Below are positions 4,050 through 23,649 of a stretch of 64,000 nucleotides of DNA, piece by piece; positions within the stretch are counted from its first letter, which is position 1, and the number at the start of each line of letters is the position of its first letter. The DNA is from an uncultured Ignavibacteria bacterium (GTDB taxonomy: Bacteria > Bacteroidota > Ignavibacteria > UBA10030 > UBA6906): positions 6,451-70,450 of the forward strand of contig CAWABB010000008.1 of the NCBI GenBank assembly GCA_963780165.1. Direction: 5' to 3'. The notes under the pieces are model-generated. The model searched no databases. It worked only from the letters and a program-made list of their open reading frames with translations, and had not been told where the DNA came from. The position numbers were made by a program, and so were the translations under genes.

Positions 4050-4076
4050 AATCGGATTCTGGAGGGCAGCCGGGAC

Positions 4077-5879: not shown

Positions 5880-7127
5880 CTACACCCAGCCCCTGAGCTT
5901 GCACGCTTCCGCGACGCGAGCCACACCGACAACCATCGCTCCCAGCCGCGGGTGGACTTTTTTCTCACGGACCGCTTCCTGGACGGTCCTGTAGGCGTTC
6001 GTGAGCTTCTTGTCGAGGCGCTCGTGCACACGTTCTTCTTCCCAGAAGAACGAATACTTGTCCTGCACCATTTCGAAGTATGAGACGGTAACTCCGCCTG
6101 CGCTCGCAAGGATATCCGGGATCACATGGATCCCCTTCTGGGCGAGAACAGGGTCCGCCTCGGGCGTCGTCGGCCCGTTCGCAAGCTCGCAGACAACCTT
6201 CGCCCGGATGCGGTCCACGTTTCGCTCGTTAATGGCGTTTTCGAGTGCGGCGGGGTAGAGGATGTCAACGGGAAGCTCAAGGACCGAGTCGCGATCCATC
6301 GGTTGGCCCCCGGGGAAACCCACCACCGATCCGGTTTTGAGCTTATGGGTGACGAGGTCTTTCGGGTTGAGGCCGGCCGGATTCGTAATGCCTCCCCGTG
6401 AGTCGCATGCGGCCACAAGGGTTCCCCCGCCGAGCAGTTCCTGGTGCAGCAGCGCCGCCCGCTGCCCCGCGTTTCCGAAACCCTGAATCGCGTACGTCCC
6501 CCGGGGATCTATCCGGAGGAGCCTGCACGCCTCACGGACGGTGATGACCCCTCCACGTGCGGTGGCGTCACGCCTCCCCTCCGTGCCGCCGATCTGCTGC
6601 GGCTTGTCGGTGAGGACCCCAGGCTCGTGCCGCTGGATGAGGGTCTCATATTCGTCCATCATCCAAGCCATCGTCTGAGGATTCGTGTAGACGTCGGGGG
6701 CGGGGATGTCCTTGTCCGTCCCGATCAGCGGGGCCACCGCCCGGACATACGCCCGGGAAATGTTCTCCAATTCCCGCTCGGAAAGCCGCCGTGGGTCGCA
6801 CACCACGCCTCCCTTGCCGCCGCCGAGCGGGAGGTCCACCACGGCGGTCTTCCACGTCATCCAACCTGCCAGGGCCCGAATCGTGTCCACGGTCTCATCG
6901 GGGTGAAACCGGATTCCGCCTTTCGCGGGCCCGCGGGCGTAGTTGTGTTGTATCCGCCACCCCTGAAAGATGCGAACCGTTCCGTCATCCATGCGTACAG
7001 GCATGGTGAACGAGTGTTCCCGCTGCGGCCACAGAAGGAGTTCGATGGTCGCGTCGTCAAGTCTGAGGATGCGAGCTGCCTCGCGCACCTGCTGCTGCTC
7101 GACAGAGAAGCTGTTGTAGGAAGTCAT
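5880..7127 (-). CDS. Glutamate dehydrogenase, ~415-aa Glu/Leu/Phe/Val dehydrogenase type (paralogue 3)
   Basis: GPAKGGIRFHPDET, PLGGGKGGVVCDPRRLSERELE and a C-terminal Rossmann domain (IQGFGNAG). The ATG at 7127 forms an ATGA overlap with the upstream small ORF. The longer ORF-track start at 7223 would only add a non-homologous leader. Confidence 0.85.
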   Translation of the reverse strand: MTSYNSFSVEQQQVREAARILRLDDATIELLLWPQREHSFTMPVRMDDGTVRIFQGWRIQHNYARGPAKGGIRFHPDETVDTIRALAGWMTWKTAVVDLPLGGGKGGVVCDPRRLSERELENISRAYVRAVAPLIGTDKDIPAPDVYTNPQTMAWMMDEYETLIQRHEPGVLTDKPQQIGGTEGRRDATARGGVITVREACRLLRIDPRGTYAIQGFGNAGQRAALLHQELLGGGTLVAACDSRGGITNPAGLNPKDLVTHKLKTGSVVGFPGGQPMDRDSVLELPVDILYPAALENAINERNVDRIRAKVVCELANGPTTPEADPVLAQKGIHVIPDILASAGGVTVSYFEMVQDKYSFFWEEERVHERLDKKLTNAYRTVQEAVREKKVHPRLGAMVVGVARVAEACKLRGWV

Positions 7128-7336
7128 GGGCTCTGCTCTCTTCGGTGGTCCTTGCGCGGCGATTTCCCCCCGGCTCCGGGCGGGTGAACTTCCAGCATGA
7201 TTCTGTACCAGCAGTGCTTGCACATGAGTGCCCGGTCAACATTGAGCAGGACCTTTTCCCACGGGCTCAGGGGGTGGCCGCAGTGCGGACAGGCCTCGAA
7301 CACGGGGGGGGATGTGTCGTGAGTTTCATCGGGCAT
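7124..7336 (-). CDS. Small zinc-ribbon protein (70 aa), hypothetical
   Basis: CPHCG-x22-CKHC (two CxxC pairs). The start overlaps the stop of the upstream 1004-aa gene by 11 nt and the stop overlaps the GDH start (ATGA). Third-position G/C bias is gene-like. No family recognised. Confidence 0.45.
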   Translation of the reverse strand: MPDETHDTSPPVFEACPHCGHPLSPWEKVLLNVDRALMCKHCWYRIMLEVHPPGAGGKSPRKDHRREQSP

Positions 7337-10300
7337 TTCCGGTCTCCGGTTTCAGAATCACTCCCTTGTTGAGGTGGCCGTTGATCTTGATCGTCAATGA
7401 GTGCTCGAGCCTGACCAGCCTGGTCCATTGAGCCGTCTCGAGCGCCGGCTGTTCGACCAGCCAGTTCCAGTCGAGAAACCCCAGATGCGCGTGCGCGTTC
7501 ACGGTGAAATAGCCGACCATGAACGACGTGATGTTCTGGAAGAAATGCGTCCCCTGCGAGGGCGCGACGGCGATTTCTTTGAATCCCGCTTCTACGATTG
7601 CCCGGGCGCCGGCAATGTCTTTCCATGCCACGGGGATTCCAAGCCACGGGTCGAGGGATCCCCAGCGTCCCACGCCGATCAGGAGGTAGGGGCGACCTTC
7701 CGTGATCAGGCGGTTGTTGAAGGTGGCGACCTCGCGCGCGACATCCCGGCTGCGCGAGCGATCGAACGTGTGAACGTCGACAAAAACAATATCCCGGATG
7801 TCTTCGATAAGCCCGTTCCCGAGCACCATCGTGCTCTCGCAGAGAAGCTGGGAGCGATCGGTCACATCGACCGTGAGCGCCTCAGGTTCTCGGTGGATCA
7901 CGAGGGGGCGCATCTGTAACAGTGCGAATTCCTTCGGCTCGCCTCGCGGGCGGGCGAGGTTTACTGCAAATTCGACCTCCACCGGCGTCCCCATCCCCCA
8001 CGTGCCCATATCCAGTATTAACTCCAGGATCTGAGCGAGGGGGAGGAGCTTGTGTCGCAAAACGGGATGGAAGGTGACCACGCGAATACCGGGACGGGCG
8101 ATGCCGTCGTAGATGACGTCGTTTTCCGGCGAGTAGGTCGATCCCACATACCGGAGCGTGTCGTCCTGCTCGGCGACGGTGAGCTCGTGGAGTTTGAGCA
8201 GCACGTCGTGCGTCTCGGCCCCGAAGTCGGTCGGCGCGTCCATCTCCAGCGCGAAGAACTGGCGCTGTGTGCTGTTGATGGTCTCCTCCACGGAATAGAA
8301 CTGGATGTTGTCGGTGGGATATTTCGGGCAGAACCTGACGGCGTTTCCGCCGTCGACGACCGTCTTTCCGAGGCCCAGGGCAACAGAGACGACGCCGTCC
8401 GCCGATTTTTGGGGCGGGATGGGGTAGAAATTGTACGCCTTCCCCACGCCGGCGAAGTCGGGATAGAAACGCCCGTCGTGCTGTGCCCCGACCATCTTTT
8501 GGACGATGACCGCCATCTTCTCCTCCTCCAGGCGGTAGGAAGTGACGCGAAAGTAATCCTTGGTACCCTGATAGAAGGTCGAGGCGTATACGCGCTTGAT
8601 ACTGTTCAGGAGATCGTTCAGGCGGACGAGCGGATCGGCATTCGCGTTCGGAAGCATGTACGTCTCGTAGACTCCCGCAAAGGGATGATACTGGGAATCC
8701 TCCATGAGGCTCGAAGAGCGGACGGCCAGCGGCGAGCGCACAAGATCCAGGAAGGCGACAAGATCTGCCAGGACAACGGCCGGAAACTTCGATGCCGTGA
8801 GGAATCGCCTCGTGATCTCCCGGTCGTCGGTGCACGTCATACCGAATGTGCGGAGGTTGTTCTCTTCCACGAACTGATCGAACACCTCCGTCCCGACAAC
8901 GACAGCGGGAGGGACGAGGATCTGAACACCCTCGAATCTGTCACGGACACTGTAGTCGTTCAGGAGCGTGCTGACGAACCCCAGGCCACGGGCTTTCCCG
9001 CCCAGCGAGCCTCCGCCGATTCGCGCGAAGCTTGAGTCCGGATCAAACGTCTCTTTTGTGAAATCGGCGATGATGCCGCGCTGGCGGATATTCCTGTAAT
9101 CGTGGAGCGACGCGATCAGGTGCTCGCGCAGCGCCCCGACTGAGGGATAGTCCGACACTTTGCGCGGGCGGAGCTGGTGGGCGAGCCAAAATTCCGTCCG
9201 GGCTTTCAGCCAGTTAGAGAAGTGGTTCCGCTCGGCATGATAGCGGATACTTTCCCCGGGGACCTCCCCCAGTCGCTCTTCGAGAGAGCGCAGGTCGGTG
9301 GCCCGGCCCACCTCGCGGCCATCAGGCAGCCGGAACACGAAATCGCCGAACGAAAACTGGTGGAACATAAACTCTCGGAGCTCGGTCAGCAGCAGGGGAG
9401 AGCCCTTGATGACGAATCTGCAGCCTGCCCGTCTTGCTTCGTCCTCGGCATCCGCCATCGTGGAAAGCAGCAGGATCGGCACGTCCGGCTGATCGGCTTT
9501 GATCGTGCGTGCGAGCACGATCCCTGCCCGGGAATCCTGGACCCCGTCGCGGGGGAAATCGATGTCCGACAGGATGCCCAGGACGAAATCACGATAGCGC
9601 TGGTAGTATCCGAACGCTTCCTCGTACGAGGTCGCAAGGAGGATCTTCGGCCGCGCCCGCATGCGGAGGAATTTATGCGTGAGATTGATGCCTTCGGAGA
9701 TGAGTCCCTGCGACTGCTTTAGCAGTTCCGTGTAGATGATCGGCAGAAAGGAGGAGTAGTGCTTGACGTTGTCCTCGACGACGATCACCGTCTGCACGCC
9801 GACCATCCGCGTGTCGTGATCGACGTTCATCCTGTCCTCGAGGTACTTGATGATCGCGATAATGATCCGGAAATCCCCCTGCCAGATGAAGACGCGATCG
9901 AAGACCGAGGTGTCGGTGTTCAGGAGGAGGTGCTTCAGCTCCAGGTTGTCATGTGCCAGAAGCACGACGGGGATGTCGATGCCGGAGGCGCGCGCCATGC
10001 GTGCAAAGTCGACGGCGTGCATGTCGTCGATGTGGAGCGTCGTGATGATGAGATCGAAGCGGCGCTCCTCGCGGGCGAGACGGATGGCATCGCGGCCGCT
10101 GGAGACGCGCGTCAGCTCGGGGCTGTGACTGAGGTTGAAACCCTGGTATTCGTTGCGGATAAGTTCGTAGAGGCGACCGTCTTCCTCGAAGAGGTACAGA
10201 TCGTAGAGGCTTGAGACCAGGAGGATGTCCCTGATCCTTAGCCGCATGAGATTCTGGAACCCCTGAAAGCGGTTCCCGTAGCCATGCTCGACGAGCAACG

Positions 10301-10340
10301 TATCGAGCATGCCGGAGACATCATCGGGCGGGCCTGTCAT
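7326..10340 (-). CDS. Degenerate receiver + canonical receiver + PEP/pyruvate-binding (PPDK_N ATP-grasp) protein, paralogue 1
   Basis: 1004 aa. REC-like 1 lacks the acceptor Asp (FDLIITTLHIDDM), while REC 2 is canonical (VIVVEDN, GILSDIDF, ILLLST, VIKGSP). PPDK_N motifs GGKARGLGF and AVRSSSLMEDS..PFAGVYETY are present. Confidence 0.8.
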   Translation of the reverse strand: MTGPPDDVSGMLDTLLVEHGYGNRFQGFQNLMRLRIRDILLVSSLYDLYLFEEDGRLYELIRNEYQGFNLSHSPELTRVSSGRDAIRLAREERRFDLIITTLHIDDMHAVDFARMARASGIDIPVVLLAHDNLELKHLLLNTDTSVFDRVFIWQGDFRIIIAIIKYLEDRMNVDHDTRMVGVQTVIVVEDNVKHYSSFLPIIYTELLKQSQGLISEGINLTHKFLRMRARPKILLATSYEEAFGYYQRYRDFVLGILSDIDFPRDGVQDSRAGIVLARTIKADQPDVPILLLSTMADAEDEARRAGCRFVIKGSPLLLTELREFMFHQFSFGDFVFRLPDGREVGRATDLRSLEERLGEVPGESIRYHAERNHFSNWLKARTEFWLAHQLRPRKVSDYPSVGALREHLIASLHDYRNIRQRGIIADFTKETFDPDSSFARIGGGSLGGKARGLGFVSTLLNDYSVRDRFEGVQILVPPAVVVGTEVFDQFVEENNLRTFGMTCTDDREITRRFLTASKFPAVVLADLVAFLDLVRSPLAVRSSSLMEDSQYHPFAGVYETYMLPNANADPLVRLNDLLNSIKRVYASTFYQGTKDYFRVTSYRLEEEKMAVIVQKMVGAQHDGRFYPDFAGVGKAYNFYPIPPQKSADGVVSVALGLGKTVVDGGNAVRFCPKYPTDNIQFYSVEETINSTQRQFFALEMDAPTDFGAETHDVLLKLHELTVAEQDDTLRYVGSTYSPENDVIYDGIARPGIRVVTFHPVLRHKLLPLAQILELILDMGTWGMGTPVEVEFAVNLARPRGEPKEFALLQMRPLVIHREPEALTVDVTDRSQLLCESTMVLGNGLIEDIRDIVFVDVHTFDRSRSRDVAREVATFNNRLITEGRPYLLIGVGRWGSLDPWLGIPVAWKDIAGARAIVEAGFKEIAVAPSQGTHFFQNITSFMVGYFTVNAHAHLGFLDWNWLVEQPALETAQWTRLVRLEHSLTIKINGHLNKGVILKPETGNAR

Positions 10341-10357
10341 TGCAGTGTCCTCCCGGA

Positions 10358-10386
10358 AAGATAGGGAATCCCGGGCTGTGGTGAAA
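10358..10386 (-). promoter_or_regulatory. Candidate sigma-70-type promoter for paralogue 1 (TTTCAC-N17-TATCTT)
   Basis: The minus strand reads TTTCAC cacagcccgggattccc TATCTT about 20 nt upstream of the ATG at 10340. The -10 sits inside the recurring TTCCCTATC motif, but the -35 is weak. Confidence 0.3.
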
Positions 10387-10402
10387 GTCCGCCTACATAT
10401 CG

Positions 10403-10431
10403 GAGAGAGACGGGGGAAACCCGTCTCTCTC
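10403..10431 (-). terminator. 12-bp GC-rich hairpin downstream of gdhA paralogue 1
   Basis: GAGAGAGACGGG-ggaaa-CCCGTCTCTCTC starts 22 nt after the stop at 10453. It has no U-tract, so it could act as a terminator, attenuator or RNA-stability element. Confidence 0.4.
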
Positions 10432-10452
10432 GCGCGCGGCGAAGTGCCGGAC

Positions 10453-11814
10453 CTAGACGATTCCCTGGTCCATCATTGCGTCTGCGACCTTCAAGAACCC
10501 GCCGATATTAGCGCCGTTGACGTAGTTCCCGGGAGTCCCGAACCGATCGGCCATTTCGACGCACGTGCGGTGGATGCTCCTCATGATCTGACGGAGGCGC
10601 AGGTCGACCTCGTCTTTCGGCCACGGGAGGCGCATGCTGTTCTGGGCCATCTCCAGCCCAGAGACCGCGACGCCACCGGCATTCGCTGCCTTGCCCGGCC
10701 CGTAGAGGATTCCGGCATCCAGAAAAGTCTTGACTCCGTCTGGCGTCGTGGGCATGTTAGCACCCTCGGACACGCACGCCACGCCGTTGCGGACCAGGTT
10801 CGCCGCGTCTCTGCCGTTAATCTCGTTTTGCGTCGCGCTCGGGAACGCGCAGTCGGCCTTGTGGTCCCACAGTGGGTTATGGTCCATCGAGCCATCGAGC
10901 GCGGCGTACGTCGCCGAACGGTATTTTGTTGTGTACTCCTGAATCCTTCCGCGGCGGACATTCTTGAGTTCCATCACGTATGCCAGCTTTTCCGCCGAGA
11001 TTCCTTCTGCGTCGTAGATGTATCCGTTCGAGTCGGAGAGCGTGACGGCCTTCCCGCCGAGCTGGTTGATCTTCTCGACGGTGTACTGCGCAACGTTGCC
11101 GCTACCGGAAACGAGGCAGATCTTCCCGTCGAGCGTCTTCCCTTTTGTCGCGAGCATCTCTGCCGCGAAATACACCGCCCCATAGCCGGTGGCCTCAGGC
11201 CGGATCAGCGAGCCGCCCCAATTCAGCCCCTTGCCCGTGAGGACCCCGGTGAATTCGTTCCTGAGTTTCTTATACTGTCCGAACAGGTACCCGATCTCCC
11301 TTCCGCCCACACCGATATCGCCTGCGGGGACGTCCGTGTCGGCCCCGATGTGCCTGAAGAGTTCGCTCATGAAGGCCTGGCAGAACCGCATGATCTTCAG
11401 ATCGCTCTTTCCCTTCGGATCGAAATCTGACCCGCCCTTTCCGCCCCCCATCGGAAGCGTCGTCAGGCTGTTCTTGAACACCTGTTCAAAGGCCAGGAAC
11501 TTCAGGATGCCCTGCGTGACCGACGGGTGAAACCGGAGTCCTCCCTTGTACGGGCCGATCGCGCTATTCATCTCAATCCTGTATCCCCGGTTCACGTGGA
11601 TTTCTCCCTGTTCGTCGACCCAGGGGACCCGGAACGTGATGATCCTTTCAGGCTCGACGATGCGCTCGAGAACCTTTGCAGCCTGGTACTCCGGGTGCCG
11701 CTCGAACACGAGCGTGAGCGATTCCGCGACTTCCTGGACTGCTTGATGGAACTCCCCTTCCGCCGGGTTCTTCGCCTTGACCTCCGCCATAAGGTCGCGT
11801 ACGTAGTCTGACAT
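10453..11814 (-). CDS. gdhA: NADP-type glutamate dehydrogenase (E. coli GdhA-like hexameric class), paralogue 1
   Basis: GPYKGGLRFHPSVTQGILKFLAFEQVFKNSLTTLPMGGGKGGSDFDPKGKSD and DTDVPAGDIGVGGREIGYLFGQYKKL closely match the GdhA family throughout. GGAGG lies upstream of the ATG at 11814. Confidence 0.95.
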   Translation of the reverse strand: MSDYVRDLMAEVKAKNPAEGEFHQAVQEVAESLTLVFERHPEYQAAKVLERIVEPERIITFRVPWVDEQGEIHVNRGYRIEMNSAIGPYKGGLRFHPSVTQGILKFLAFEQVFKNSLTTLPMGGGKGGSDFDPKGKSDLKIMRFCQAFMSELFRHIGADTDVPAGDIGVGGREIGYLFGQYKKLRNEFTGVLTGKGLNWGGSLIRPEATGYGAVYFAAEMLATKGKTLDGKICLVSGSGNVAQYTVEKINQLGGKAVTLSDSNGYIYDAEGISAEKLAYVMELKNVRRGRIQEYTTKYRSATYAALDGSMDHNPLWDHKADCAFPSATQNEINGRDAANLVRNGVACVSEGANMPTTPDGVKTFLDAGILYGPGKAANAGGVAVSGLEMAQNSMRLPWPKDEVDLRLRQIMRSIHRTCVEMADRFGTPGNYVNGANIGGFLKVADAMMDQGIV

Positions 11815-11878
11815 TGTGCCTCCAAACGTGGTGAGTGTGGTCCCTGCACGGCCGACGCGTTGGTCGGGTTGCAGGTGG

Positions 11879-11907
11879 AGGATAGGGAACTGTCGGATTG
11901 CGGTGTA
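11879..11907 (-). promoter_or_regulatory. Candidate promoter for gdhA paralogue 1 (TACACC-N17-TATCCT)
   Basis: The minus strand reads TACACC gcaatccgacagttccc TATCCT about 65 nt upstream of the ATG. It contains the recurring TTCCCTATC motif, but the -35 is weak. Confidence 0.3.
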
Positions 11908-11964
11908 TCGGCGGGACGCGCGAAAGGATGTGGGGAAATCCCTACAGGGCCAACGGGGACGTTC

Positions 11965-14943: not shown

Positions 14944-14969
14944 GGACTGTCGTTGCTCCGTATTCGACT

Positions 14970-14998
14970 ATGATACGGGATTGGCGTCAGACGGTCAA
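14970..14998 (-). promoter_or_regulatory. Candidate sigma-70-type promoter for paralogue 2 (TTGACC-N17-TATCAT)
   Basis: The minus strand reads TTGACC gtctgacgccaatcccg TATCAT with 17-nt spacing, 26 nt upstream of the ATG at 14943 and directly after the hairpin at 15008-15027. Confidence 0.5.
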
Positions 14999-15007
14999 GA
15001 ACGCGAA

Positions 15008-15027
15008 AGCCTCCCGGTCGGGAGGCT
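15008..15027 (-). terminator. Intrinsic-terminator-like hairpin after gdhA paralogue 2
   Basis: AGCCTCCC-ggtc-GGGAGGCT. On the minus-strand RNA it is followed by UUCGCGUUCUU. It lies 28 nt after the stop at 15056. Confidence 0.5.
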
Positions 15028-15055
15028 CTCTGCGGTACGGGGAGGGGGGGATAGC

Positions 15056-16396: not shown

Positions 16397-16427
16397 TGTG
16401 ACTCCGCTCTGTTGTGATATCGCTTGT

Positions 16428-16446
16428 TCCGCCGGCCTTCGGCGGA
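16428..16446 (-). other. 7-bp hairpin in the 62-nt spacer upstream of gdhA paralogue 2
   Basis: TCCGCCG-gcctt-CGGCGGA lies between the stop at 16459 and the ATG at 16396, with no U-tract. It could be an RNA processing or attenuation structure. Confidence 0.25.
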
Positions 16447-16458
16447 CTGGGCCGGCCG

Positions 16459-17622: not shown

Positions 17623-17634
17623 GGGCGACTCTCC

Positions 17635-18441
17635 TCAGATGGTATCCGATCCGCAAGGGGTCAGGTGGGACAATTCATATTCGGGATTTGACGGGATGAT
17701 TCTGTACAGCCAACCGGCGAAGTACGGGTCTTTCTCGACAATGTGAGGGTCCGCGCCAAGGTCGGGGTTGCGCGCGATGACCTTGCCGCTGAGCGGGGAG
17801 AGGATGGCGTGCGTGAGCCCCTCGGCCGTCTCGATGCTCGCGCACCGGATGCCCTGGACAATATCTTCCTGTTCCTCCATGAAATCAAGGCGGCTGATCC
17901 GGTCCACCGTGCGCGCGAAGGCATGCGACACGCCGATAAGGGCAGTGCCGTCGCTGTCGAGCGTCGTCCAGCTCATGTAGCCCAGGCGGTAGTATCTGGG
18001 CGGGCAGGGGACGGTGAACAGCGGCGCGTCTTCCGGGGGACCGGTCCGTACGCTGCGGAGCGACACAAGATCGCGGTACCGCAGCCCCCGCTTCAGCGTC
18101 GACAGCAACTCGTCGGCGGTGAACGGCTTTGGGACGAAGTCGATGGCGCCCGCATACAGCGAGCGCACAGCGTTTTCGACGGTGGAGTAGCCGGTCGAAA
18201 TGATCACCGGCGTCTCAGCCGAGCGACGCTGCACCTGGGCGAGCACTTCGAATCCGTCCATCTCCGGCATCATGATGTCGCACATTACCAGACGGTAGTG
18301 GTGCGCCTCCAGCGCGCGCAATGCCGAGGCGCCGTCCCGGGCGGTCTCCACGGTAAGGCCTTCCGCCGTGCAAATGTGGCGGACCGCCTCGAGCACGACG
18401 TCTTCGTCGTCGATGACAAGGATGTCGGTCTCGCTGGCCAT
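17635..18441 (-). CDS. Soluble receiver (REC) - GcvH-like fusion protein
   Basis: Receiver (ILVIDDEDV..LVMCDIMMPEMDG..VIISTGY..FVPKPF) followed by an H-protein-like domain (GYMSWTTLDSDGTALIGVSHFA-type, SPLSGKVIARN, DPYFAGWLYRI). Confidence 0.75.
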   Translation of the reverse strand: MASETDILVIDDEDVVLEAVRHICTAEGLTVETARDGASALRALEAHHYRLVMCDIMMPEMDGFEVLAQVQRRSAETPVIISTGYSTVENAVRSLYAGAIDFVPKPFTADELLSTLKRGLRYRDLVSLRSVRTGPPEDAPLFTVPCPPRYYRLGYMSWTTLDSDGTALIGVSHAFARTVDRISRLDFMEEQEDIVQGIRCASIETAEGLTHAILSPLSGKVIARNPDLGADPHIVEKDPYFAGWLYRIIPSNPEYELSHLTPCGSDTI

Positions 18442-18445
18442 GGGC

Positions 18446-20314
18446 TCACCTCGCCTGCCGGACCGGAATCCGGATTGTGAATCGCGTCCCCTCGCCGATC
18501 CGGCTGTCGACGGAAATCGATCCGTTGTGGTTGTCGACGATCCCCCAGATCACCGAGAGTCCGAGGCCGGTCCCCTTCTGCCCCTTCGTGGTGTAGAAGG
18601 GCTCGAATATCCTGGGGAGATCCTCCGCGGCGATCCCCGAACCCGTGTCGGCCACTGTGATCTCGACGTAGTCGCTCAATCCTCCCGCGTCCACCGCTTC
18701 CCACCGCTCGTACTCGCACCCGCGACGGCTGCAGATCTCGAGCCGCCCCTGTCCAGGCACGTCGAGCATGCACACCCGCGCGGAGCAGACCGGGCACTTT
18801 GCTGTGGCGTCGAGCAATGTGGCCTGGCATTCCGGGCAGGAGAGCTGAAGGTCGGTGCCCGCCGGCGCGCTGAGCCCAAACTGGTGATTGTGCCTGCCGT
18901 AGACGGGGTCGAGATACGCGAAGCCTTCGTCGGTCCCCGCGAGCGCCCGCACCCGAACGGAAGGGAGGCCGCCGATCCGGACTTCATCGTGAATCAGCGA
19001 ATGCCGTTTGGGACACTGGGCCTTGCGTATCTGGGTGATGCCCCGGGGAGAGAGCTGGAGGAGCGAGCTCCCGATCGTGATCGTGCCGCCCCGCGGCCCG
19101 ATGGCGTCGGCGGCGTTCACGATGAGGTTCAGGAAGACCTGCTGGATCTGATTGGCGTCGACGGTGAGCTTCGGGAGATCGTCCGCCGTTTCCCTGACGA
19201 GCTTGATGTGGTGGAGCGTGAGTTGGTTGCTTGCAACGTGGATCGCGCGGTCGATGATCTCGTTCAGCGAGGCTTCCGTCTTCTTGGGAACAGACTGCCG
19301 CGCGAAGTCCAGCAAACTCTTGACGATTTCCCTGCACCGGATCGTTTCCCGAACCACCACTTTCAGGTCTTCCTGGATCTCGGGCCGGTCCTGCGTGCGG
19401 CGCATCAGAAAGCTGCTGTATGTCAGGACGCCGGTCAGGGGGTTGTTGATTTCGTGGGCGACCCCCGCAGCCAGCCGGCCGAGGGACGCGAGCTTGTCGG
19501 ACTGGAAGAGCTGGACGCGCGCGTCGGCGAGCTTGCGGGTCATGTTATTGAACGACCCGGCCAGCACGCCCAGTTCGTCCGCCCGTCGCTCCTTGATGGT
19601 GTAGCTCAGGTTCCCGTCTGCCACCGCCTGCGTGGCGCGGACGAGCTCTTTCACGGGCTTATCCACCCAGCGGCGGACGAAGAGGCCGATGATCAGGCTG
19701 ATCCCGAGGAACGACGCAAGTGCCGAAAGGATCAGCTCGAGCTGGATTCCCGCAAGCGTCTTGTCTGCCTCCCGCAACGGGAGGGCAACGTCAAGCACGC
19801 CGAGGACGGTCTTGTCTTTTGGGTGCGCGTGACACTCCGCAGTCCAGCACGACTGCTCGTTCTGGATGGGCGTGATGATCCCGAGGTAGCGTGAGGAGTC
19901 GGGGTGGACCTGGAAGATCCGCGTCCGTTCCTTCATCGGCAGACGCTCCAGCGGCCGGTCCGCTGAATGGCAGCTGTAGCAGCTCTCCGCGTCCTTGTCC
20001 ACCATGGTGCCGACGTCGGCCTCGACGGACGAGTAGATGATCTCTCCCGTCTTGTTCATGATGCGCACCTTGCCGATCCCGGGCTGCTCGCCGATGCCGC
20101 GCACGATCTGTCGGATGTGATCGCGCTCGTTCAACAGCATCTCGTACCGCGTGCTTGCTCTGACCGTTTCGCTCAGCTGGTTCGCGTGTCGCTCTACCTC
20201 AGCGAGCATCCCGGCGTTCATCGATTGCAGGCTCAGGTACGCGAACAGGGCGATGATCGTGACGGCGGTGACGCCGACGAGGAGGATGAGTTTTGTGCCG
20301 ATACGTTTCAGCAT
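18446..20314 (-). CDS. Sensor histidine kinase: periplasmic domain with c-haem motifs, HAMP, HisKA, and a HATPase split by a Cys-rich insert
   Basis: Two TM helices flank a ~165-aa domain carrying CYSCH and CWTAECH. H-box VAHEINNPL, N-box NLIVNAADA and G-box DTGSGI are present, with ~130 extra residues between the N and G1 boxes. The start lies 3 nt after the cytochrome stop. Confidence 0.85.
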   Translation of the reverse strand: MLKRIGTKLILLVGVTAVTIIALFAYLSLQSMNAGMLAEVERHANQLSETVRASTRYEMLLNERDHIRQIVRGIGEQPGIGKVRIMNKTGEIIYSSVEADVGTMVDKDAESCYSCHSADRPLERLPMKERTRIFQVHPDSSRYLGIITPIQNEQSCWTAECHAHPKDKTVLGVLDVALPLREADKTLAGIQLELILSALASFLGISLIIGLFVRRWVDKPVKELVRATQAVADGNLSYTIKERRADELGVLAGSFNNMTRKLADARVQLFQSDKLASLGRLAAGVAHEINNPLTGVLTYSSFLMRRTQDRPEIQEDLKVVVRETIRCREIVKSLLDFARQSVPKKTEASLNEIIDRAIHVASNQLTLHHIKLVRETADDLPKLTVDANQIQQVFLNLIVNAADAIGPRGGTITIGSSLLQLSPRGITQIRKAQCPKRHSLIHDEVRIGGLPSVRVRALAGTDEGFAYLDPVYGRHNHQFGLSAPAGTDLQLSCPECQATLLDATAKCPVCSARVCMLDVPGQGRLEICSRRGCEYERWEAVDAGGLSDYVEITVADTGSGIAAEDLPRIFEPFYTTKGQKGTGLGLSVIWGIVDNHNGSISVDSRIGEGTRFTIRIPVRQAR

Positions 20315-20317
20315 CTG

Positions 20318-21505
20318 CTACTTGGTGACGAGTTTCCCGGGCTTGAACTGAGGGAATGCCTTGTCCGGATGGCATCCGGCGCAGTTCGGGGACTTGCTGA
20401 AGTCTTTCCCTTCGTGACAATCGGCGCAATCGAGCGCCTCATGGATCTCGTCGAGCTTCAGGCCCGTGACCGCGTGCGTGAACGAGCCGGCGTTCCATTT
20501 CTTGTGGCACATGGCGCAATCGCGCTTGAGACCCGTAAATGCCTTCCCGTCGCCGTGGCAGCGTGAGCACTCGAGGGACGCGTGGTACGACTTCAGTGTC
20601 CACCCGGACCGGCGGGCATGGTTGAACGGACCAGGGTCGGACTTCGCGTGGCAGGTTTCGCACGACTGCTCCGCGTGGCACGATGCACATCGTGCGTGGA
20701 TGGATTCGAAATCCCGTTGCCTTTCCGCCGCAACCTGCTGGCGCATCTTCTCGGGGCGCTTGTCATGACAGCTGATGCACCCCTCCTGACGGTGGCAGTC
20801 CGCGCACTTGATGCCAAAACGGTCAGCGTGGTCCGTGTGGTAGAATGCTACGACGGTTCCGTCCTGCTCTTTGGTCGCAAATACCTTCCTGGTCGGTGCC
20901 TGGACGGGAGGGTGGTCCTTCCGGCCGCGGGTGTATCCCTGCAGGATTTGCGCGTCTGTCTTCCCTTCGGTCTTCTCCATGTGGCACGATGCGCACTCGG
21001 GGGCGCCCGTCCACTGCCGGTGGCAGTCCAGGCACTGCCGGTGATACGCGCCTTTCAGGTCGGGCACGTTGACATCCTCCCGCTTCCGGTCCGCCGGATG
21101 GCACGACCGGCACGAGAGGATATTGAGCGCCGTGTCATTGTAGTGGTGGCATCCATAGCACCCGCCCGACATCTCGGTCATCTGTGCGTGCGTCTTGTGG
21201 CTGAACACCACGGGGCCGTACTGGCCGGATTTCGAATCCATCAGGACCAGGCCGGGACCGTCCGCGGGAGTGTGGACGCCGGTGGACTCTTTCACGCGCG
21301 GACACACGATGAGGCAGGGGTCCGACTTGGTGGGCGTCGTGCATGTGTGACACATGACGCACCTGTTTCGCAACTCCGTCGGCAGCGCGTGCGGCGCTTC
21401 CTTCGTGGACTGCGCGCGTCCAACATGGGTCGCGAAGGATGCGACCATCAGACATGCTGCCGCGGCACATGCCGCCGCGGTGGAAATCCGTGCGAGGGTC
21501 TTCAC
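20318..21505 (-). CDS. Periplasmic multihaem cytochrome c (13 CxxCH motifs, cytochrome c3/c7-like repeats)
   Basis: A GTG start at 21505 (GTGA overlap with the nrfD-like stop) gives the signal peptide VKTLARISTAAACAAAACLMVASFA. I counted 13 CxxCH motifs, mostly in pairs preceded by FxHxxH-type distal His. The rest of the 787-aa ORF-track entry overlaps nrfD in another frame. Confidence 0.85.
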   Translation of the reverse strand: MKTLARISTAAACAAAACLMVASFATHVGRAQSTKEAPHALPTELRNRCVMCHTCTTPTKSDPCLIVCPRVKESTGVHTPADGPGLVLMDSKSGQYGPVVFSHKTHAQMTEMSGGCYGCHHYNDTALNILSCRSCHPADRKREDVNVPDLKGAYHRQCLDCHRQWTGAPECASCHMEKTEGKTDAQILQGYTRGRKDHPPVQAPTRKVFATKEQDGTVVAFYHTDHADRFGIKCADCHRQEGCISCHDKRPEKMRQQVAAERQRDFESIHARCASCHAEQSCETCHAKSDPGPFNHARRSGWTLKSYHASLECSRCHGDGKAFTGLKRDCAMCHKKWNAGSFTHAVTGLKLDEIHEALDCADCHEGKDFSKSPNCAGCHPDKAFPQFKPGKLVTK

Positions 21506-22746
21506 GATCCGGCCCTCCTGAGTGTGTACTTCACGCGCGGCGCGGGAGCACCCTCTTCGGAGCTGATCACGGGGAAGTTGATCACCATGAACCGGTAGGC
21601 CAGCATCAGGAGGGCGACGAAGCCGACCGTCACCGAGATCTCTCCGAAGCTGGGGAAGTACGGGTGTGTGGAGTACGGCGGATTGTACGCCGTAATAAAG
21701 GTGTTGATGCGGGAGAGCAGGACGCCCAGGACGACCAGCAGTGCGGCCGTGAATAGCAGGGGGGGCGACTTGCGGACCGTCGGTGACAGCAGCATCCGCA
21801 GGGGGATAACCACGCCCCCCACGACCTCCAGAGCGAACATGATGCTGACGGTGTTCAGTTCGGTAAGGTACACGAATGATTCCCTGATGACCATGTCGCC
21901 GATCTTGAACCCGAGATAGATCCCGAGGAGCGGCGGAATCAAGCGGGCGAGATCGGACAGCACCGGCATCTCCGGCGGCATCTTGAACGAGCGGGACGCC
22001 AGCATCGACTCGACGATCACCATAGGGAATCCGACGGAGATCGCGGAAAGAAGGAAGAGGAGCGGTGACACCGGGCTGTACCAGAGCGGGTGCATCTTGG
22101 AGGCCGAGATGACCATCAGCGTTCCGAGAGAAGACTGGTGCAGTGTCGACAGGACGACGCCCGCGATGATGAAGATGAACATGAACCGCTCGAGGGATCG
22201 GTCGAGGAGACGGAGCACCGCTTCGACGCCGCGGTTGAACTTTTCGAGGAAGCCGGGAAGGTTGACGTGCCCGATGAACCGCTCGCACACGATCGGCAGG
22301 AACTCGATGTAGAGCACGCTCATATAGATCATGACGCACATGCCGACCTCGAAGAGCGCCGAGGAGCCGTTCCACATGATCAACGGATGCCAGATGTAAT
22401 ACCAGCGTCCTATATCGGAGAAGACGCCGACGGCGACGAACGTATATCCGAGCATGGCGGTGAGGAGCGCCGGCCTGATGATGACGTGGAACTCTTCGCG
22501 GCGCATGACGTGCCCGAGCGCGGCGGTGGTAAACCCGCCGGCCGCGAGGGCCACTCCCGCGGCCACGTCGACCGCGATCCAGAGGCCCCACGGGTACTGG
22601 TTGTTCAGATTCGTGACGGCTGCAAACCCGAACAGGAACCGGCCTGCGAGGAACACCAGCCCGTTCAGGGCCACCAGGCAAAGAACAATGACCCCCGGGG
22701 TGAAGAAGGGTCGCTTCAATGGACTCGGGGAACCGTGATCCTGCAT
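21502..22746 (-). CDS. NrfD/PsrC/HybB-family integral membrane quinone-interacting subunit
   Basis: 414 aa, polytopic, with NQYPWGLWIAVDVAAGVALAAGGF typical of the NrfD family. It sits between the FeS and cytochrome genes with a 3-nt gap and a 4-nt overlap. Confidence 0.8.
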   Translation of the reverse strand: MQDHGSPSPLKRPFFTPGVIVLCLVALNGLVFLAGRFLFGFAAVTNLNNQYPWGLWIAVDVAAGVALAAGGFTTAALGHVMRREEFHVIIRPALLTAMLGYTFVAVGVFSDIGRWYYIWHPLIMWNGSSALFEVGMCVMIYMSVLYIEFLPIVCERFIGHVNLPGFLEKFNRGVEAVLRLLDRSLERFMFIFIIAGVVLSTLHQSSLGTLMVISASKMHPLWYSPVSPLLFLLSAISVGFPMVIVESMLASRSFKMPPEMPVLSDLARLIPPLLGIYLGFKIGDMVIRESFVYLTELNTVSIMFALEVVGGVVIPLRMLLSPTVRKSPPLLFTAALLVVLGVLLSRINTFITAYNPPYSTHPYFPSFGEISVTVGFVALLMLAYRFMVINFPVISSEEGAPAPRVKYTLRRAGS

Positions 22747-22749
22747 GGC

Positions 22750-23649
22750 TTATTCACTTTCGGGTGATTTGTCTTTCGAGAGCCACATGATGGAACCGAG
22801 GAGCGCATAGAGAGCGACGGGGGGGACGAAGTAGGAGAAGATGCCGTGCTGGATCGCCTCGGAAGTCCCTGGTGCCGGTGCGGTGCCCACCGTGGGCAGC
22901 CCCAGCTCGGTGAACTCCCGTCCCGCAAGGTACATCCACGACGTGCCGCCCACCTCCAGCTCGCCGTACACGTGGTCGACGTACCGTTCCGGCGACCGGC
23001 GGATGCGCTGCTTGGCGACGTACACGAGCTCCTCTCGCGGCCCGAACGTCAACGCCTCGACGGGGCAGATCTCCACGCAGGCCGGCAGCTCACCTTTGGC
23101 CTGACGGTTCACGCAGAAGTCGCACTTCCGGATCTCCGGGTTGATGGCCTTGTGGTACTCGAAGGCCGGGACCTGGAACGGGCACGCGACCATGCAATAC
23201 CTGCAGCCGATGCACATGTCCCCGTCCCACACCACTGCCCCGCTCTCGTGCTTCGAGAACGCGCCGACGATGCACGCCGAGAGGCAGGCGGGACGATCGC
23301 AGTGCATGCACTGCACTTTCACATCGTACGGCAACGCGACGTTCTCAGGGTTCGCGAATTCGTTGACGACGGTGAGCGCCGTATCGTCGGGCCTCCTCAT
23401 CGTCGCGAAGACGCTGCGGTCCTTGTACGCCTCGAGAGGCTCCGCGGGAAGATCGTGCGCAGTCTGGCACGCCCACTCGCAGTTCCGGCAGCCCACGCAG
23501 ACGGTCGTGTCGACCAGAACCCCGTTGCGCTTCGGGGACAGCGTGTTCTCCGGGCCGGCGCGGGCGACGGCGGGGGTGGTGAGGGCGGTTCCGGTACCTG
23601 CTGCAACGAGGGTCTTCAGAAAGACCCTACGGTCACGGGGGGTTGTCAT
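22750..23649 (-). CDS. TAT-exported 4Fe-4S ferredoxin-type subunit (HybA/NrfC/HmcB-like) with C-terminal TM anchor
   Basis: Twin-arginine signal (RDRRVFLKTLVAAGTG), several CxxCxxCxxxC(P) cluster motifs (CVGCRNCEWAC, CIGCRYCMVACP, CMHCDRPAC) and a C-terminal helix (YFVPPVALYALLGSIMWL). Confidence 0.85.
   Translation of the reverse strand: MTTPRDRRVFLKTLVAAGTGTALTTPAVARAGPENTLSPKRNGVLVDTTVCVGCRNCEWACQTAHDLPAEPLEAYKDRSVFATMRRPDDTALTVVNEFANPENVALPYDVKVQCMHCDRPACLSACIVGAFSKHESGAVVWDGDMCIGCRYCMVACPFQVPAFEYHKAINPEIRKCDFCVNRQAKGELPACVEICPVEALTFGPREELVYVAKQRIRRSPERYVDHVYGELEVGGTSWMYLAGREFTELGLPTVGTAPAPGTSEAIQHGIFSYFVPPVALYALLGSIMWLSKDKSPESE

Follow-up and report, generated by a model that had tools for sequence, protein, structure and literature searches.

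A recurrent glutamate dehydrogenase cassette carrying PPDK_N-type response regulators adjoins a multihaem cytochrome module in an Ignavibacteria bacterium

Enzymes of nitrogen assimilation have dedicated post-translational controllers, among them GlnE, which acts on glutamine synthetase, GarA/OdhI, which act on glutamate dehydrogenase (GDH) and ODH in actinobacteria, and the GdhA-GdhB-APRTh complex of Thermus. Among membrane-associated redox systems, the Hmc, Nhc and Tmc complexes of sulfate reducers and the HybA-HybB pair of hydrogenase 2 are the closest described counterparts of the electron-transfer genes considered here. Both kinds of function come together in a 17.8-kb array of twelve co-directional minus-strand CDS, which lies in a 64,000-nucleotide stretch of DNA (the window) from an uncultured Ignavibacteria bacterium. 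A check of the ORFs and Pfam searches bore out the twelve genes of the original prediction with their coordinates and domains, the 13 haem motifs of the cytochrome and every junction distance (from 23649 to 5880, in order: 3, -4, 3, 4, 12, 62, 112, 150, 112, -11 and -4 nt, negative values being overlaps); its shorter start choices likewise agree with the lengths of the orthologues (415 aa for GDH3 and 446 aa for gdhA2).

The array consists of two separately conserved gene modules that are joined in the window's lineage. Module A (23649 to 16459) comprises genes for an FeS protein, an NrfD protein, a 13-haem cytochrome, a dihaem sensor kinase and two REC-GcvH-like regulators, and module B (16396 to 5880) comprises gdhA2, REC-PPDK_N-2, gdhA1, REC-PPDK_N-1, a zinc ribbon and GDH3; the operon boundaries within the array are predicted ones. 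Because the arrangement is conserved across genomes of 33% to 64% GC, it lies far beyond what chance would produce.

Module A and its putative sigma-54 arm

The first three genes of module A would specify an Hmc-like electron-transfer complex of the periplasm and membrane. The first encodes a TAT-exported 4Fe-4S protein resembling HmcB and HybA (22750..23649, minus strand; Pfam Fer4_11, E 7.6e-20), with a twin-arginine N-terminus (RDRRVFLK), NCBIfam scores of 325 bits for HmcB (cut-off 420) and 243 bits for HybA, and orthologues at 63-78% identity in all module-A loci. It is followed by an NrfD-type integral membrane subunit of the HybB/HmcC kind (21502..22746, minus strand; Pfam NrfD, E 2.3e-21), which is predicted to interact with quinone and which scores 344 bits for HybB and 272 bits for HmcC, each below its cut-off. 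Its gene overlaps by GTGA with that of a periplasmic cytochrome c (20318..21505, minus strand; Pfam Cytochrom_CIII and Cytochrome_C7) with exactly 13 CXXCH motifs, a number also found in each of five orthologues. The likeness to the Hmc, Nhc, Tmc and HybA-HybB systems thus lies in the FeS and membrane proteins, along with c3-type multihaem domains in the cytochrome that resemble fragments of HmcA. However, no module-A score reaches its NCBIfam cut-off, the genes run B-C-A, the haems number 13, both cytoplasmic HmcE/F-type subunits and a hydrogenase are absent, and the genes share what would be a single transcription unit with those of a haem kinase and a pair of REC-GcvH regulators.

This kinase (18446..20314, minus strand; Pfam HAMP, HisKA and HATPase_c) carries two c-haem motifs, CYSCH and CWTAECH, in its periplasmic domain and a Cys-rich insert in its ATPase domain; the patterns CY[SA]CH and CWxAxCH and the insert are kept in the window and all five orthologues. 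The two regulators are a 268-aa protein (17635..18441, minus strand; Pfam Response_reg 2.5e-30, GCV_H 1.2e-15) with 1539 homologues, and a membrane-anchored 387-aa paralogue (16459..17622, minus strand; Response_reg 2.9e-30, GCV_H 1.9e-18) with the hydrophobic N-terminus MLPFIVAVILFIIADIAI, whose gene is always 3' of the former in the module-A loci compared. Their output domains match Pfam GCV_H (E 1e-15 to 2e-18), as do glycine cleavage protein H and the lipoate-binding GcvH-like proteins. Unlike in those proteins, the domain forms one chain with a receiver, and E, P, T, D or R stands at the lipoyl-lysine position, which should preclude lipoylation; three Cys are conserved in the 268-aa family.

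A divergently encoded pair, a sigma-54 activator and a second haem kinase paralogous to the first, probably activates module A through a sigma-54-like promoter. The promoter element (ATGGCTCACTTGTTGAC; 23694..23710, minus strand) lies ~60 nt 5' of the start codon of the FeS gene. Between the otherwise diverged upstream regions of the window and of loci L083, L089, L090 and L091, no other block is conserved. The element is present in all five loci with a nearby sigma-54 activator and absent from L086 and L092, both of which are without one; its assignment to sigma-54 is a putative one because the -12 element has TTGA in place of TTGC. The kinase and activator are encoded on the plus strand (23931..26983; Pfam), the kinase having the haem motifs CVTCH and CAGAGCH and 32% identity over 437 aa to its in-operon paralogue. 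The same pair adjoins module A in L083, L089 and L090, and in L091 the activator stands upstream of the module by itself, with no partner kinase called. The pair probably serves module A as its transcriptional arm.

The junction between the modules

The original prediction took the 17.8 kb to be one circuit, in which the haem kinase senses the redox state of the periplasm or quinone pool and controls the three GDHs through the REC proteins, including the REC-PPDK_N receivers, for instance in amino-acid-fuelled respiration. Within the window, the shared direction of the twelve genes agrees with this, as do the short spacer (just 62 nt, with no significant hairpin) from the last REC-GcvH gene to gdhA2 and several encoded peptidases (M64, M14), which would fit amino-acid catabolism. 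Elsewhere, a seven-gene unit of module A plus gdhA2 is found in three of the six informative contexts (the window, L083 and the distant L091), and a second, different GcvH-like/FeS/NrfD module lies divergent to gdhA2 in three of 80 REC-PPDK_N loci (L004, L018, L021).

However, module A recurs intact in every other context examined, with no GDH at all in L086, L089 and L092, and one MAG has the two modules on a single contig with about 200 kb between them (L007 versus L087). The expected recurrence of cytochrome neighbours held for the REC-GcvH-like homologues, which are always accompanied by the FeS, NrfD, 13-haem cytochrome and kinase genes, but failed for REC-PPDK_N, with cytochrome, kinase and REC-GcvH genes in 0/80 loci. 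Additionally, the in-operon kinase comes with two cognate regulators of its own, module B's own kinase, where present, is of the HisKA_3 type, and gdhA2 is split from REC-PPDK_N-2 by a strong hairpin and a promoter-like site. A single circuit spanning the whole array is accordingly a reading we consider unlikely.

The intergenic structure of module B follows the earlier description in part. A hairpin and/or a promoter-like element had been proposed for each long spacer, and G+C-rich hairpins 3' of gdhA2 (15002..15034, minus strand; spacer fold -37 kcal/mol, z -3.35, 0/200 shuffles as stable) and of gdhA1 (10401..10434, minus strand; -49.9 kcal/mol, z -3.41, 1/200) do surpass shuffled controls, but the 150-nt spacer after REC-PPDK_N-2 has no structure better than its controls (z -0.38). 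A sigma-70-like match (TTGACC-17-TATCAT, 10/12 positions; 14970-14998) lies 3' of the gdhA2 hairpin and is the one such match in the 19 kb scanned, below the 3.5 that chance alone would give.

The A-B junction is confined to the window's lineage, in which the module-A operon appears to have captured gdhA2 at its 3' end; in L091, too, gdhA2 comes after module A, with no REC-PPDK_N gene behind it. Hence redox sensing in the periplasm may act on transcription of gdhA2, and not on the rest of module B. The redox-to-GDH circuit is, at best, such a lineage-specific, transcriptional link to gdhA2.

Module B as a recurrent GDH cassette

The three GDHs of module B, all matching Pfam ELFV_dehydrog_N and ELFV_dehydrog, appear to differ in kind, judging by their nearest solved relatives and class-specific dinucleotide motifs. 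The hinge gene gdhA2 (15056..16396, minus strand) encodes an NAD-type enzyme, closest to the NAD-specific GDH of Clostridium symbiosum (1bgv/1hrd, E 6e-183), with a GFGNVAWG motif common to the NAD-type GDHs of other loci. The product of gdhA1 (10453..11814, minus strand) is of the NADP type known from Corynebacterium glutamicum and E. coli (best solved relatives 5ijz, 5gud, 4fcc and 3sbo); it shares its GSGNVAQY motif with 64 of 66 orthologues and is conserved at 71-86% identity across loci. The 415-aa GDH3 (5880..7127, minus strand) is of the archaeal/Thermotoga type, with Thermococcus, Pyrococcus and Thermotoga GDHs (1euz, 1bvu, 1gtm, 2tmg) as best solved relatives and an NCBIfam GdhA_Arch score of 536 bits.

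In 79 of 80 Ignavibacteriota/Bacteroidota loci, REC-PPDK_N has a GDH gene as its neighbour, in keeping with the enrichment that had been anticipated, and no other neighbour exceeds 21/80. Three GDHs tied to signalling proteins, held earlier to be no standard arrangement, are therefore no oddity of the window's genome, and in this group module B is a standard cassette, if an unstudied one. About 30 of the 80 loci have the full set of six genes ordered as in the window, with the triad of REC-PPDK_N-1, zinc ribbon and GDH3 as the minimal conserved core, and REC-PPDK_N-2 is directly 3' of gdhA2 wherever the latter sits in the cassette. The cassette proteins retain 65-86% identity across loci of 33-64% GC, suggesting unusually strong constraint. 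The zinc-ribbon protein (70 aa; 7124..7336, minus strand), whose gene overlaps its two neighbours by 11 nt and by ATGA, has the core CPHCGxxLSPWxxVLLxVDRAxxCKxCWYRI; a homologue is found between REC-PPDK_N-1 and GDH3 in 77/80 loci, and in L063 it is fused in frame with REC-PPDK_N-1.

Among more distant REC-PPDK_N relatives (35-48% identity), GDH is the only recurrent neighbour (32/80 loci), and when those with at least 1.8 kb on both sides are considered, it is adjacent in 17/41, in all orientations, leaving about 59% without an adjacent GDH. These figures suggest that the link between REC-PPDK_N and GDH is ancient. That the adjacency is coincidental or the outcome of recent gene shuffling, devoid of functional meaning, might be argued from the lineage-specific A-B junction. 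However, the gene order is conserved, the genes overlap and, as there are few GDH genes per genome, adjacency in 79/80 and 17/41 loci across deeply diverged genomes is not chance; for module B coincidence is already contradicted, and we accord it a negligible probability. The relatives in the human-gut Bacteroidales Phocaeicola plebeius and Bacteroides caecicola, which adjoin gdh, recall the Bacteroides thetaiotaomicron gdhA locus (Baggio and Morrison 1996, J Bacteriol 178:7212, as cited in PMC4539542). The tie of the family to that report is unproven, since the gut Bacteroidales gene is divergent from gdh and not downstream of it.

A candidate cognate two-component system of module B is found in the convergent operon beside it (3540..5864, plus strand; Pfam), which encodes a REC-only protein, a PEBP, a sensor-less HisKA_3 kinase and a NarL/GerE response regulator. 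Of the 80 loci, 15-20 have a homologous kinase-regulator pair within the cassette or next to it, such a pair also lies downstream of GDH3 in L081/L082, and the window's NarL regulator is 70% identical to that of L015; about 75% of the cassette loci are without a nearby kinase.

The REC-PPDK_N proteins and their proposed control of GDH

REC-PPDK_N-2 (992 aa; 11965..14943, minus strand; Pfam PPDK_N 3.1e-36 and Response_reg) is 61% identical to the 1004-aa REC-PPDK_N-1 (7326..10340, minus strand; Response_reg and PPDK_N). In both, ~1000 aa are laid out as a pseudo-receiver followed by a true receiver, an ATP-grasp of the PEP-synthase type and a C-terminal domain that falls in no known class and has a near-invariant His. 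Homologues of REC-PPDK_N-1 number at least 7994, with the top 120 at 69-84% identity; the mean column identity of the 1004-aa protein is 78-80%. Across 102 diverse representatives, K449, R541, E547, D548 and Q809 of the ATP-grasp are 100% conserved, E790 and R811 of the ATP-grasp and the C-terminal H932 98-99%, the C-terminal R892 and E917 98-100%, and the receiver residues D259 and K312 about 90%. With their ATP-grasp motifs intact, the proteins look enzymatically competent. Foldseek places the N-terminal 320 aa closest to PleD and related REC-REC-GGDEF proteins (E 5e-7), supporting a tandem receiver; its PPDK match for REC-PPDK_N-1 is weak (E 1e-3, TM 0.23), and the structure models are only moderate (pLDDT 68 and 73). 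The C-terminal domain has no Pfam match even at E 10 and no PDB sequence relative, and is not recognisable as a phosphohistidine swivel domain (hhalign probability 0.2 against that of PtsI). Public databases name the family 'PEP/pyruvate-binding domain-containing protein' or 'phosphoenolpyruvate synthase'. Identity as a PEP synthase is rejected; the PEP-utilizers swivel domain and the PEP/pyruvate (PEP-utilizers_C) TIM barrel are both absent. The family appears instead to be an uncharacterised, very widespread one of ATP-using response-regulator proteins.

The REC-PPDK_N proteins are most likely phosphorylation-switched enzymes that control the neighbouring GDH isoenzymes. Module B would then be a GDH control cassette, with three isoenzyme classes interleaved with two ~1000-aa response-regulator enzymes and a zinc ribbon. 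Phosphorylation of the true receiver at Asp259, possibly by a kinase of the HisKA_3 type such as that at 4537-5235, would turn on the ATP-grasp, which together with the C-terminal domain and its near-invariant His932 would spend ATP to modify or engage the neighbouring GDH. The outcome would be a choice between the assimilatory NADPH-linked and the catabolic NADH-linked isoenzyme, which might also block the futile NADPH-to-NADH cycle that would arise from both running together. We infer the GDH protein as target, the chemistry and the identity of the kinase, with GDH as substrate or partner suggested through guilt by association. The proposal as a whole, of two independent modules side by side with REC-PPDK_N switching the GDHs next to it, is one we favour tentatively, at somewhat less than an even chance.

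Alternatively, these proteins might be metabolic enzymes of the dikinase or ligase type, phosphorylating or activating a small molecule of the glutamate/2-oxoglutarate node in a short pathway with GDH, with phosphorylation of the receiver as its gate. Their nearest ATP-grasp relatives (PEP synthase, the prodigiosin ligases PigC/RedH and rifamycin phosphotransferase) are all small-molecule enzymes, every nucleotide-binding motif is invariant, and pathway partners typically adjoin enzyme genes. However, any recognisable substrate-binding domain is wanting, further pathway genes are not conserved nearby in the close or distant loci, and two paralogues, each with a different GDH isoenzyme of one reaction, better fit isoenzyme-specific control; we consider this alternative rather improbable.

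A further thought is suggested by the GDH of Thermus thermophilus, which undergoes AMP-dependent activation via an adenine phosphoribosyltransferase homologue: by analogy, REC-PPDK_N could be a non-catalytic nucleotide sensor that binds GDH hexamers and relays energy charge allosterically. Conservation is very high along the full 1000 residues, which points to extensive protein-protein surfaces, and the translationally coupled zinc ribbon could serve as an adaptor. That catalytic, and not merely binding, residues of the ATP-grasp and the near-invariant His are kept over about 1000 clusters at 50% identity, and that a phosphorylatable receiver is already available as input, makes this very unlikely.

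As the putative GDH-controlling enzymes, the REC-PPDK_N proteins have in common with PEP synthase, pyruvate phosphate dikinase, rifampicin phosphotransferase and PigC/RedH the PPDK_N ATP-grasp (Pfam E 1e-35), including an invariant GGKARG, VRSSxxxED, the EFA acidic pair and LQxRP. They differ from these PEP-synthase-like phosphotransferases in their two N-terminal receivers, in a C-terminal 185 aa that match no known family, in NCBIfam scores far under the cut-offs (62 versus 883 bits and similar) and in being tied to GDH genes. Like the PleD-type response regulators, they pair one phosphorylatable receiver with one adaptor; unlike in PleD, the pseudo-receiver comes first, with Thr101 or Met where the acceptor Asp would be, and the output is an ATP-grasp enzyme and not a diguanylate cyclase. 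GlnE, GarA/OdhI and the Thermus GdhA-GdhB-APRTh complex are proteins unrelated to REC-PPDK_N. The likeness to them would be one of functional analogy only: a regulator encoded with, or acting on, an ammonium-assimilating enzyme, and a rapid switch between assimilation and catabolism.

Organization of the array and its three glutamate dehydrogenases

The twelve minus-strand open reading frames (ORFs) delineated in the original prediction (5880-23649) were all confirmed with their coordinates, and all eleven junction distances between them match exactly. In the first half of the array (module A, 23649 to 16459), Pfam searches recovered Fer4_11 behind a twin-arginine N-terminus in the FeS protein (22750-23649), NrfD (21502-22746), class III/c7 cytochrome domains (20318-21505), a HAMP-HisKA-HATPase_c sensor kinase (18446-20314), and Response_reg coupled to GCV_H in the two successive REC-GcvH proteins (268 aa, 17635-18441; 387 aa, 16459-17622). 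The remainder (module B, 16396 to 5880) consists of gdhA2, REC-PPDK_N-2 (992 aa), gdhA1, REC-PPDK_N-1 (1004 aa), a 70-aa zinc-ribbon ORF and GDH3; the three glutamate dehydrogenases (GDHs) carry ELFV_dehydrog_N and ELFV_dehydrog domains, and the 992-aa and 1004-aa proteins combine Response_reg with PPDK_N. The haem motifs claimed for module A, namely 13 CXXCH in the cytochrome and CYSCH and CWTAECH in the kinase, are likewise present, and the shorter starts chosen for GDH3 (415 aa) and gdhA2 (446 aa) are backed by orthologue lengths. The array is real, as had been proposed, and non-random. The further claim of a hairpin and/or promoter-like element in each of the long spacers held for those after gdhA2 and gdhA1, whose hairpins have z-scores of -3.35 and -3.41 against shuffled controls, and failed for the 150-nt spacer, in which no hairpin exceeds such controls (z -0.38). 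The sole sigma-70-like match in the scanned region lies at 14970-14998, just past the gdhA2 hairpin; in the sigma-70 and terminator scans, site counts stayed below the chance expectation. Neither Rfam families nor tRNAs were recognized in the window.

All three GDH translations retain the GGGKGG catalytic lysine motif and both ELFV domains at full length, and their closest solved relatives are bona fide GDHs (E 1e-143 to 1e-183). The gdhA1 product is nearest to the NADP-specific GDHs of C. glutamicum and E. coli (motif GSGNVAQY), that of gdhA2 to the NAD-specific C. symbiosum enzyme (GFGNVAWG), and GDH3 to the Thermococcus, Pyrococcus and Thermotoga GDHs; identity is 69% between the first two and about 30% between either of them and GDH3. 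The dinucleotide motifs are class-consistent across loci and, with the nearest relatives, are what the predicted cofactor preferences are drawn from. NADPH- and NADH-linked GDHs acting together would constitute a futile transhydrogenase cycle, which would provide a rationale for isoenzyme-specific control.

Elsewhere in the window, genes for an M64 peptidase (129-1550), an M14 carboxypeptidase (36939-39635), a TonB-dependent receptor with a CarboxypepD_reg domain (48877-51711) and a Por_Secre_tail (type IX secretion) protein (56851-60009) fit a proteolytic organism of the Bacteroidota/Ignavibacteriota type, although the window has a GC content of 62%. Two-component genes are unusually dense around 29488-31163, where a response regulator fused to an adenylate/guanylate cyclase domain (29488-30486, +) is followed by an OmpR-type regulator (30156-31163), and a 986-aa ORF at 52631-55591 (+) has no Pfam match at E <= 1e-5.

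A conserved GDH cassette and its response-regulator family

Homologues of the 1004-aa protein number at least 7994, and the best 120 are 69-84% identical over their full length. Scanning one genome per species (GTDB representative genomes, outside which the window's organism falls and among which its best match is 74% identical) yielded at least 496 loci; the best 80, from MAGs of Ignavibacteriota, Bacteroidota and Calditrichia, were analysed for neighbours by tblastn with the window's twelve proteins as queries. Among these best 80 of at least 496 loci, a GDH gene lies beside the REC-PPDK_N gene in 79 and the zinc-ribbon ORF in 77. The arrangement had been regarded as non-standard, which proved wrong: all six module-B genes recur in the order and orientation of the window in about 30 of the 80 loci, and the minimal core, comprising REC-PPDK_N-1, the zinc ribbon and GDH3, extends more widely, being kept even where all else is missing. 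When all flanking ORFs were clustered, no other cluster was found in more than 21 of the 80 loci. The module-B proteins are 65-86% identical although the loci span 33% to 64% GC, a pattern better explained by prolonged residence under strong constraint than by recent transfer.

Several accompaniments of the cassette were observed in subsets of these loci. Upstream of gdhA2, the opposite strand encodes an M24 metallopeptidase in 21 of the 80 (L006, L007, L012, L014 and 17 others), and a Na+/H+ exchanger with TrkA domains is found downstream of the cassette in 15. A fourth match to the ELFV dehydrogenases, spanning about 330-380 aa with 37-44% identity to GDH3 and possibly of the Leu/Val type, flanks the cassette in 20 (L019, L025, L032, L034, L038, L040-L043, L049, L050, L052, L053, L055, L057, L059, L061, L077, L078 and L080). 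At a single locus (L063, 9956-13165, +), REC-PPDK_N-1 continues in-frame at its C-terminus into the zinc-ribbon ORF, which is either a true fusion or an assembly error.

Additionally, 15-20 of the 80 loci encode a PAS/HisKA_3 kinase and a NarL/GerE regulator, either beside the cassette or inside it, where REC-PPDK_N-2 and gdhA1 flank them. In the window, the homologous pair (kinase 4537-5235, regulator 5232-5864, both +) closes a four-gene operon convergent to GDH3 (3540-5864, +), which encodes a REC-only protein, a PEBP-family protein, the 232-aa sensor-less HisKA_3 kinase and the NarL regulator, the last being 70% identical to its counterpart in L015. The window's nearest relative (L081/L082, 84% identical) carries this pair downstream as well. 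This HisKA_3 kinase is the best candidate, though only a candidate, for the cognate kinase of module B. Its counterpart in L081 is 634 aa long, with dCache and HAMP domains, and a PEBP gene adjoining a REC-only gene is also seen in L083, a module-A locus.

Beyond the close relatives, a HMMER search with residues 330-1004 against 1.8 billion cluster representatives recovered 3801 clusters, 967 of them at E <= 1e-30, and most clusters of the family consist of proteins of about 1000 aa with the same architecture. A metagenome scan from 28 distant representatives provided a distant set of 80 loci, encoding proteins with 35-48% identity to the seed. A GDH gene is present in 32 of these 80 and immediately adjacent in 17 of the 41 with at least 1.8 kb on each side, in all four orientations; given the handful of GDH genes per genome, we estimate chance adjacency at well under 1%. 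Every non-GDH gene family occurs in at most four distant loci. The distant set includes Phocaeicola plebeius, in which the REC-PPDK_N gene is divergent from a gdhA-type gene, and the Bacteroides caecicola gene, whose product is 90% identical to that of P. plebeius, is likewise divergent from a gdhA-type gene. These data show that GDH is the one consistent genomic partner of the REC-PPDK_N family, and the proposed functional tie between the GDHs and the large signalling proteins is upheld by their adjacency in both locus sets. None of the REC-PPDK_N, zinc-ribbon and REC-GcvH families is covered by an NCBIfam model, and our literature searches found no paper on either the REC-PPDK_N or the REC-GcvH family. 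The one lead they gave comes from a title, Baggio and Morrison (1996), whereby trans-acting gene(s) near the B. thetaiotaomicron gdhA reportedly affect GDH activity. The genes BT1970-1973 were also considered as the B. thetaiotaomicron gdh locus; our literature searches tied none of the four to GDH, and BT1971 is a catalase.

In domain architectural terms, the REC-PPDK_N proteins (residue numbers from REC-PPDK_N-1) begin with two receivers. The first (residues ~35-160) has Thr101 at the acceptor position and is hence a pseudo-receiver; the second (~183-320) contains E189/D190, D259, S293 and K312, which are invariant in the GDH-cassette subfamily and 84-91% conserved family-wide. A short DUF5752-like region connects the latter to the PPDK_N ATP-grasp domain (Pfam E 1.4e-35 and 3.1e-36 in the two proteins), followed by a C-terminal domain of 185 aa with no Pfam family. 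Across 102 diverse full-length representatives, K449, R541, E547, D548, E790, Q809 and R811 of the ATP-grasp domain and R892, E917 and H932 of the C-terminal domain are 98-100% conserved, with H932, in a G-[ST]-H context, being the sole near-invariant histidine. By sequence, these proteins resemble active enzymes that use ATP and are governed by their receivers.

Databases name members of the family "PEP/pyruvate-binding" or "phosphoenolpyruvate synthase", and a sequence search of solved structures returned only rifampicin-phosphotransferase-type "PEP synthase" entries (E ~1e-3). Foldseek with the full-length structure model recognized PleD-type tandem receivers at the N-terminus and nothing else, and with a model of residues 330-1004 gave a weak pyruvate phosphate dikinase match (E 1e-3) while leaving the C-terminal domain unclassified (mean pLDDT of the two models, 68 and 73). 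Against a PEP synthase or pyruvate phosphate dikinase (PPDK) identity, the C-terminal 185 aa have no Pfam match even at E 10, including to PEP-utilizers (PF00391), no relative in a profile search of PDB sequences, and no detectable similarity to the PtsI swivel domain (hhalign probability 0.2). Further, the PEP/pyruvate TIM barrel (PEP-utilizers_C, PF02896) is absent from both the 992-aa and 1004-aa proteins, and the NCBIfam PEP_synth score is 44.6 bits against a cut-off of 739.75. As both the swivel and TIM-barrel domains are absent, the REC-PPDK_N proteins are not PEP synthases despite some of their database names.

The redox module and its relation to the cassette

The 268-aa REC-GcvH protein has 1539 homologues, and the same six genes occur in the same order in every context inspected (identities: L083-L085, 72-74%; L089, 72%; L090, 67-68%; L091, 51-52%; L086-L088, 52%; L092, 50%). 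The cytochrome has 13 haem motifs in all five orthologues checked (L083, L086, L089, L090 and L092), and the window and the same five loci keep the kinase motifs CY[SA]CH and CWxAxCH. A Cys-rich insert of about 100 aa with CPxC pairs lies within the kinase HATPase_c domain (residues ~430-540) in the window and all five orthologues. A second, divergent dihaem kinase (23931-25646, +; CVTCH and CAGAGCH) is 32% identical over 437 aa to that at 18446-20314, with which it has a dihaem-type periplasmic domain in common, and both may be regarded as putative haem-c-binding sensor kinases. Two paralogous dihaem kinases flank the Hmc-like genes, one accompanied by a sigma-54 activator and the other by the two REC-GcvH regulators.

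The pair of divergent kinase and sigma-54 activator adjoins module A in the window, L083, L089 and L090; in L091 the activator only was called upstream of it. A 16-nt island, ATGGCTCACTTGTTGAC (23694-23710, -), about 60 nt upstream of the FeS gene, is the sole conserved intergenic block in exactly these five loci and is missing in the two loci without the activator. It is read as a putative sigma-54-like promoter with a -12 element of TTGA, not TTGC. Only comparative alignment revealed it; a canonical sigma-54 consensus scan of the window, with 40 matches against 51 expected, is uninformative alone.

Response_reg is matched over its full length in each REC-GcvH protein (E 1e-30). In an alignment of their output domains with E. 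coli GcvH, both proteins and 20 homologues have E, P, T, D or R at the site of its lipoyl-lysine (K64, ESVKAAS). Lacking the lipoylatable lysine of the glycine cleavage H protein, these domains were rejected as lipoyl carriers. The 268-aa family has three conserved cysteines (VPCP, QGxxC and PC[GS]SD), which together with the absent lysine suggests a metal- or redox-sensitive output domain. The window's FeS, NrfD and cytochrome proteins are related to HmcB, HmcC and HmcA of the Hmc-type complex, yet score below the family thresholds (HmcB 325 bits, cut-off 420; HmcC 272, cut-off 550; HmcA 53, cut-off 400). Genes for the cytoplasmic and membrane subunits HmcD/E/F are absent from the operon, their place being taken by a kinase and two response regulators in all orthologous loci alike.

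The original prediction placed the cytochrome/NrfD module and the GDH genes in one conserved circuit. For the most part this did not stand: the in-operon kinase, both REC-GcvH proteins and the cytochrome are found by tblastn in none of the 80 REC-PPDK_N loci, so that a single conserved twelve-gene unit is rejected, and FeS and NrfD homologues occur in three of the 80, on the opposite strand. In one MAG, modules A and B lie about 200 kb apart on one contig (L007 and L087), and unrelated genes follow module A in L086, L089 and L092. What survives is the link to gdhA2, which directly follows module A in three contexts: the window, L083 (where REC-PPDK_N-2 and then a TPR gene come next) and the distant L091 (where a gdhA2-type gene is frameshifted and a REC-PPDK_N gene is lacking). 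Frameshifts split three genes of L091, on a 1-Mb contig, namely those for the cytochrome, the kinase and the gdhA2-type GDH (6858-9996 and 12055-13424), and may be sequencing or assembly errors rather than marks of pseudogenes. A second redox module, comprising a stand-alone GcvH-like protein (223 aa), FeS, NrfD, a 239-aa protein without known family and a kinase, is divergent to module A in L086 (467-3835, -) and to gdhA2 in L004, L018 and L021. The repeated adjacency of gdhA2 to redox modules implies a recurrent mutual attraction between such modules and the NAD-type GDH. In the window, the 62-nt spacer before gdhA2 has no significant hairpin and the spacer after it has a strong one, which suggests that gdhA2 is the final gene of the module-A transcript; the other five module-B genes have no such tie. 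We regard the separation of the array into modules A and B as close to certain.

Proposed function and parallels with known systems

Carbon and nitrogen metabolism meet at GDH, and to our knowledge the switching between assimilatory and catabolic GDH isoenzymes in the Bacteroidota group is poorly understood. In the model that we find best supported, and to which we give chances just short of even, the receivers of the REC-PPDK_N proteins would switch the ATP-grasp enzyme, which would in turn control its neighbouring GDH isoenzyme, with both target and chemistry conjectural. A fuller version of this proposal, which we hold to be distinctly more doubtful, is that the ~1000-aa proteins constitute an unrecognised class of response-regulator enzymes, which would covalently modify GDH, isoenzyme by isoenzyme, through ATP-dependent phosphoryl or nucleotidyl transfer via His932, with the zinc ribbon as an adaptor for the archaeal-type GDH, in Ignavibacteriota, in Bacteroidota (human-gut Bacteroidales among them) and in many further bacteria. 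If true, such covalent modification could also account for early observations of trans-acting control over Bacteroides GDH.

The REC-PPDK_N family is very large and uncharacterised, with at least 8000 sequences and about 970 clusters at 50% identity (E <= 1e-30). Its occurrence in cultivable, genetically tractable gut species makes the hypothesis directly testable. Should these proteins regulate GDH, two-component systems would gain a new output, and nitrogen control an added layer, in bacteria abundant in the environment and the gut. A second unexplored system is module A, in which two paralogous kinases with predicted haem binding, a sigma-54 arm and two non-lipoylatable GcvH-like regulators surround an Hmc-like complex. 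With PEP synthase and PPDK, the REC-PPDK_N proteins have in common the ATP-grasp domain and its catalytic Lys/Arg/Glu/Asp/Gln residues, but miss the phosphohistidine swivel and the TIM barrel, two of the three defining domains of those enzymes. In the fuller proposal of covalent modification, the switch would be comparable to GlnE, with the difference that GlnE acts on glutamine synthetase and the REC-PPDK_N proteins would act on GDH.
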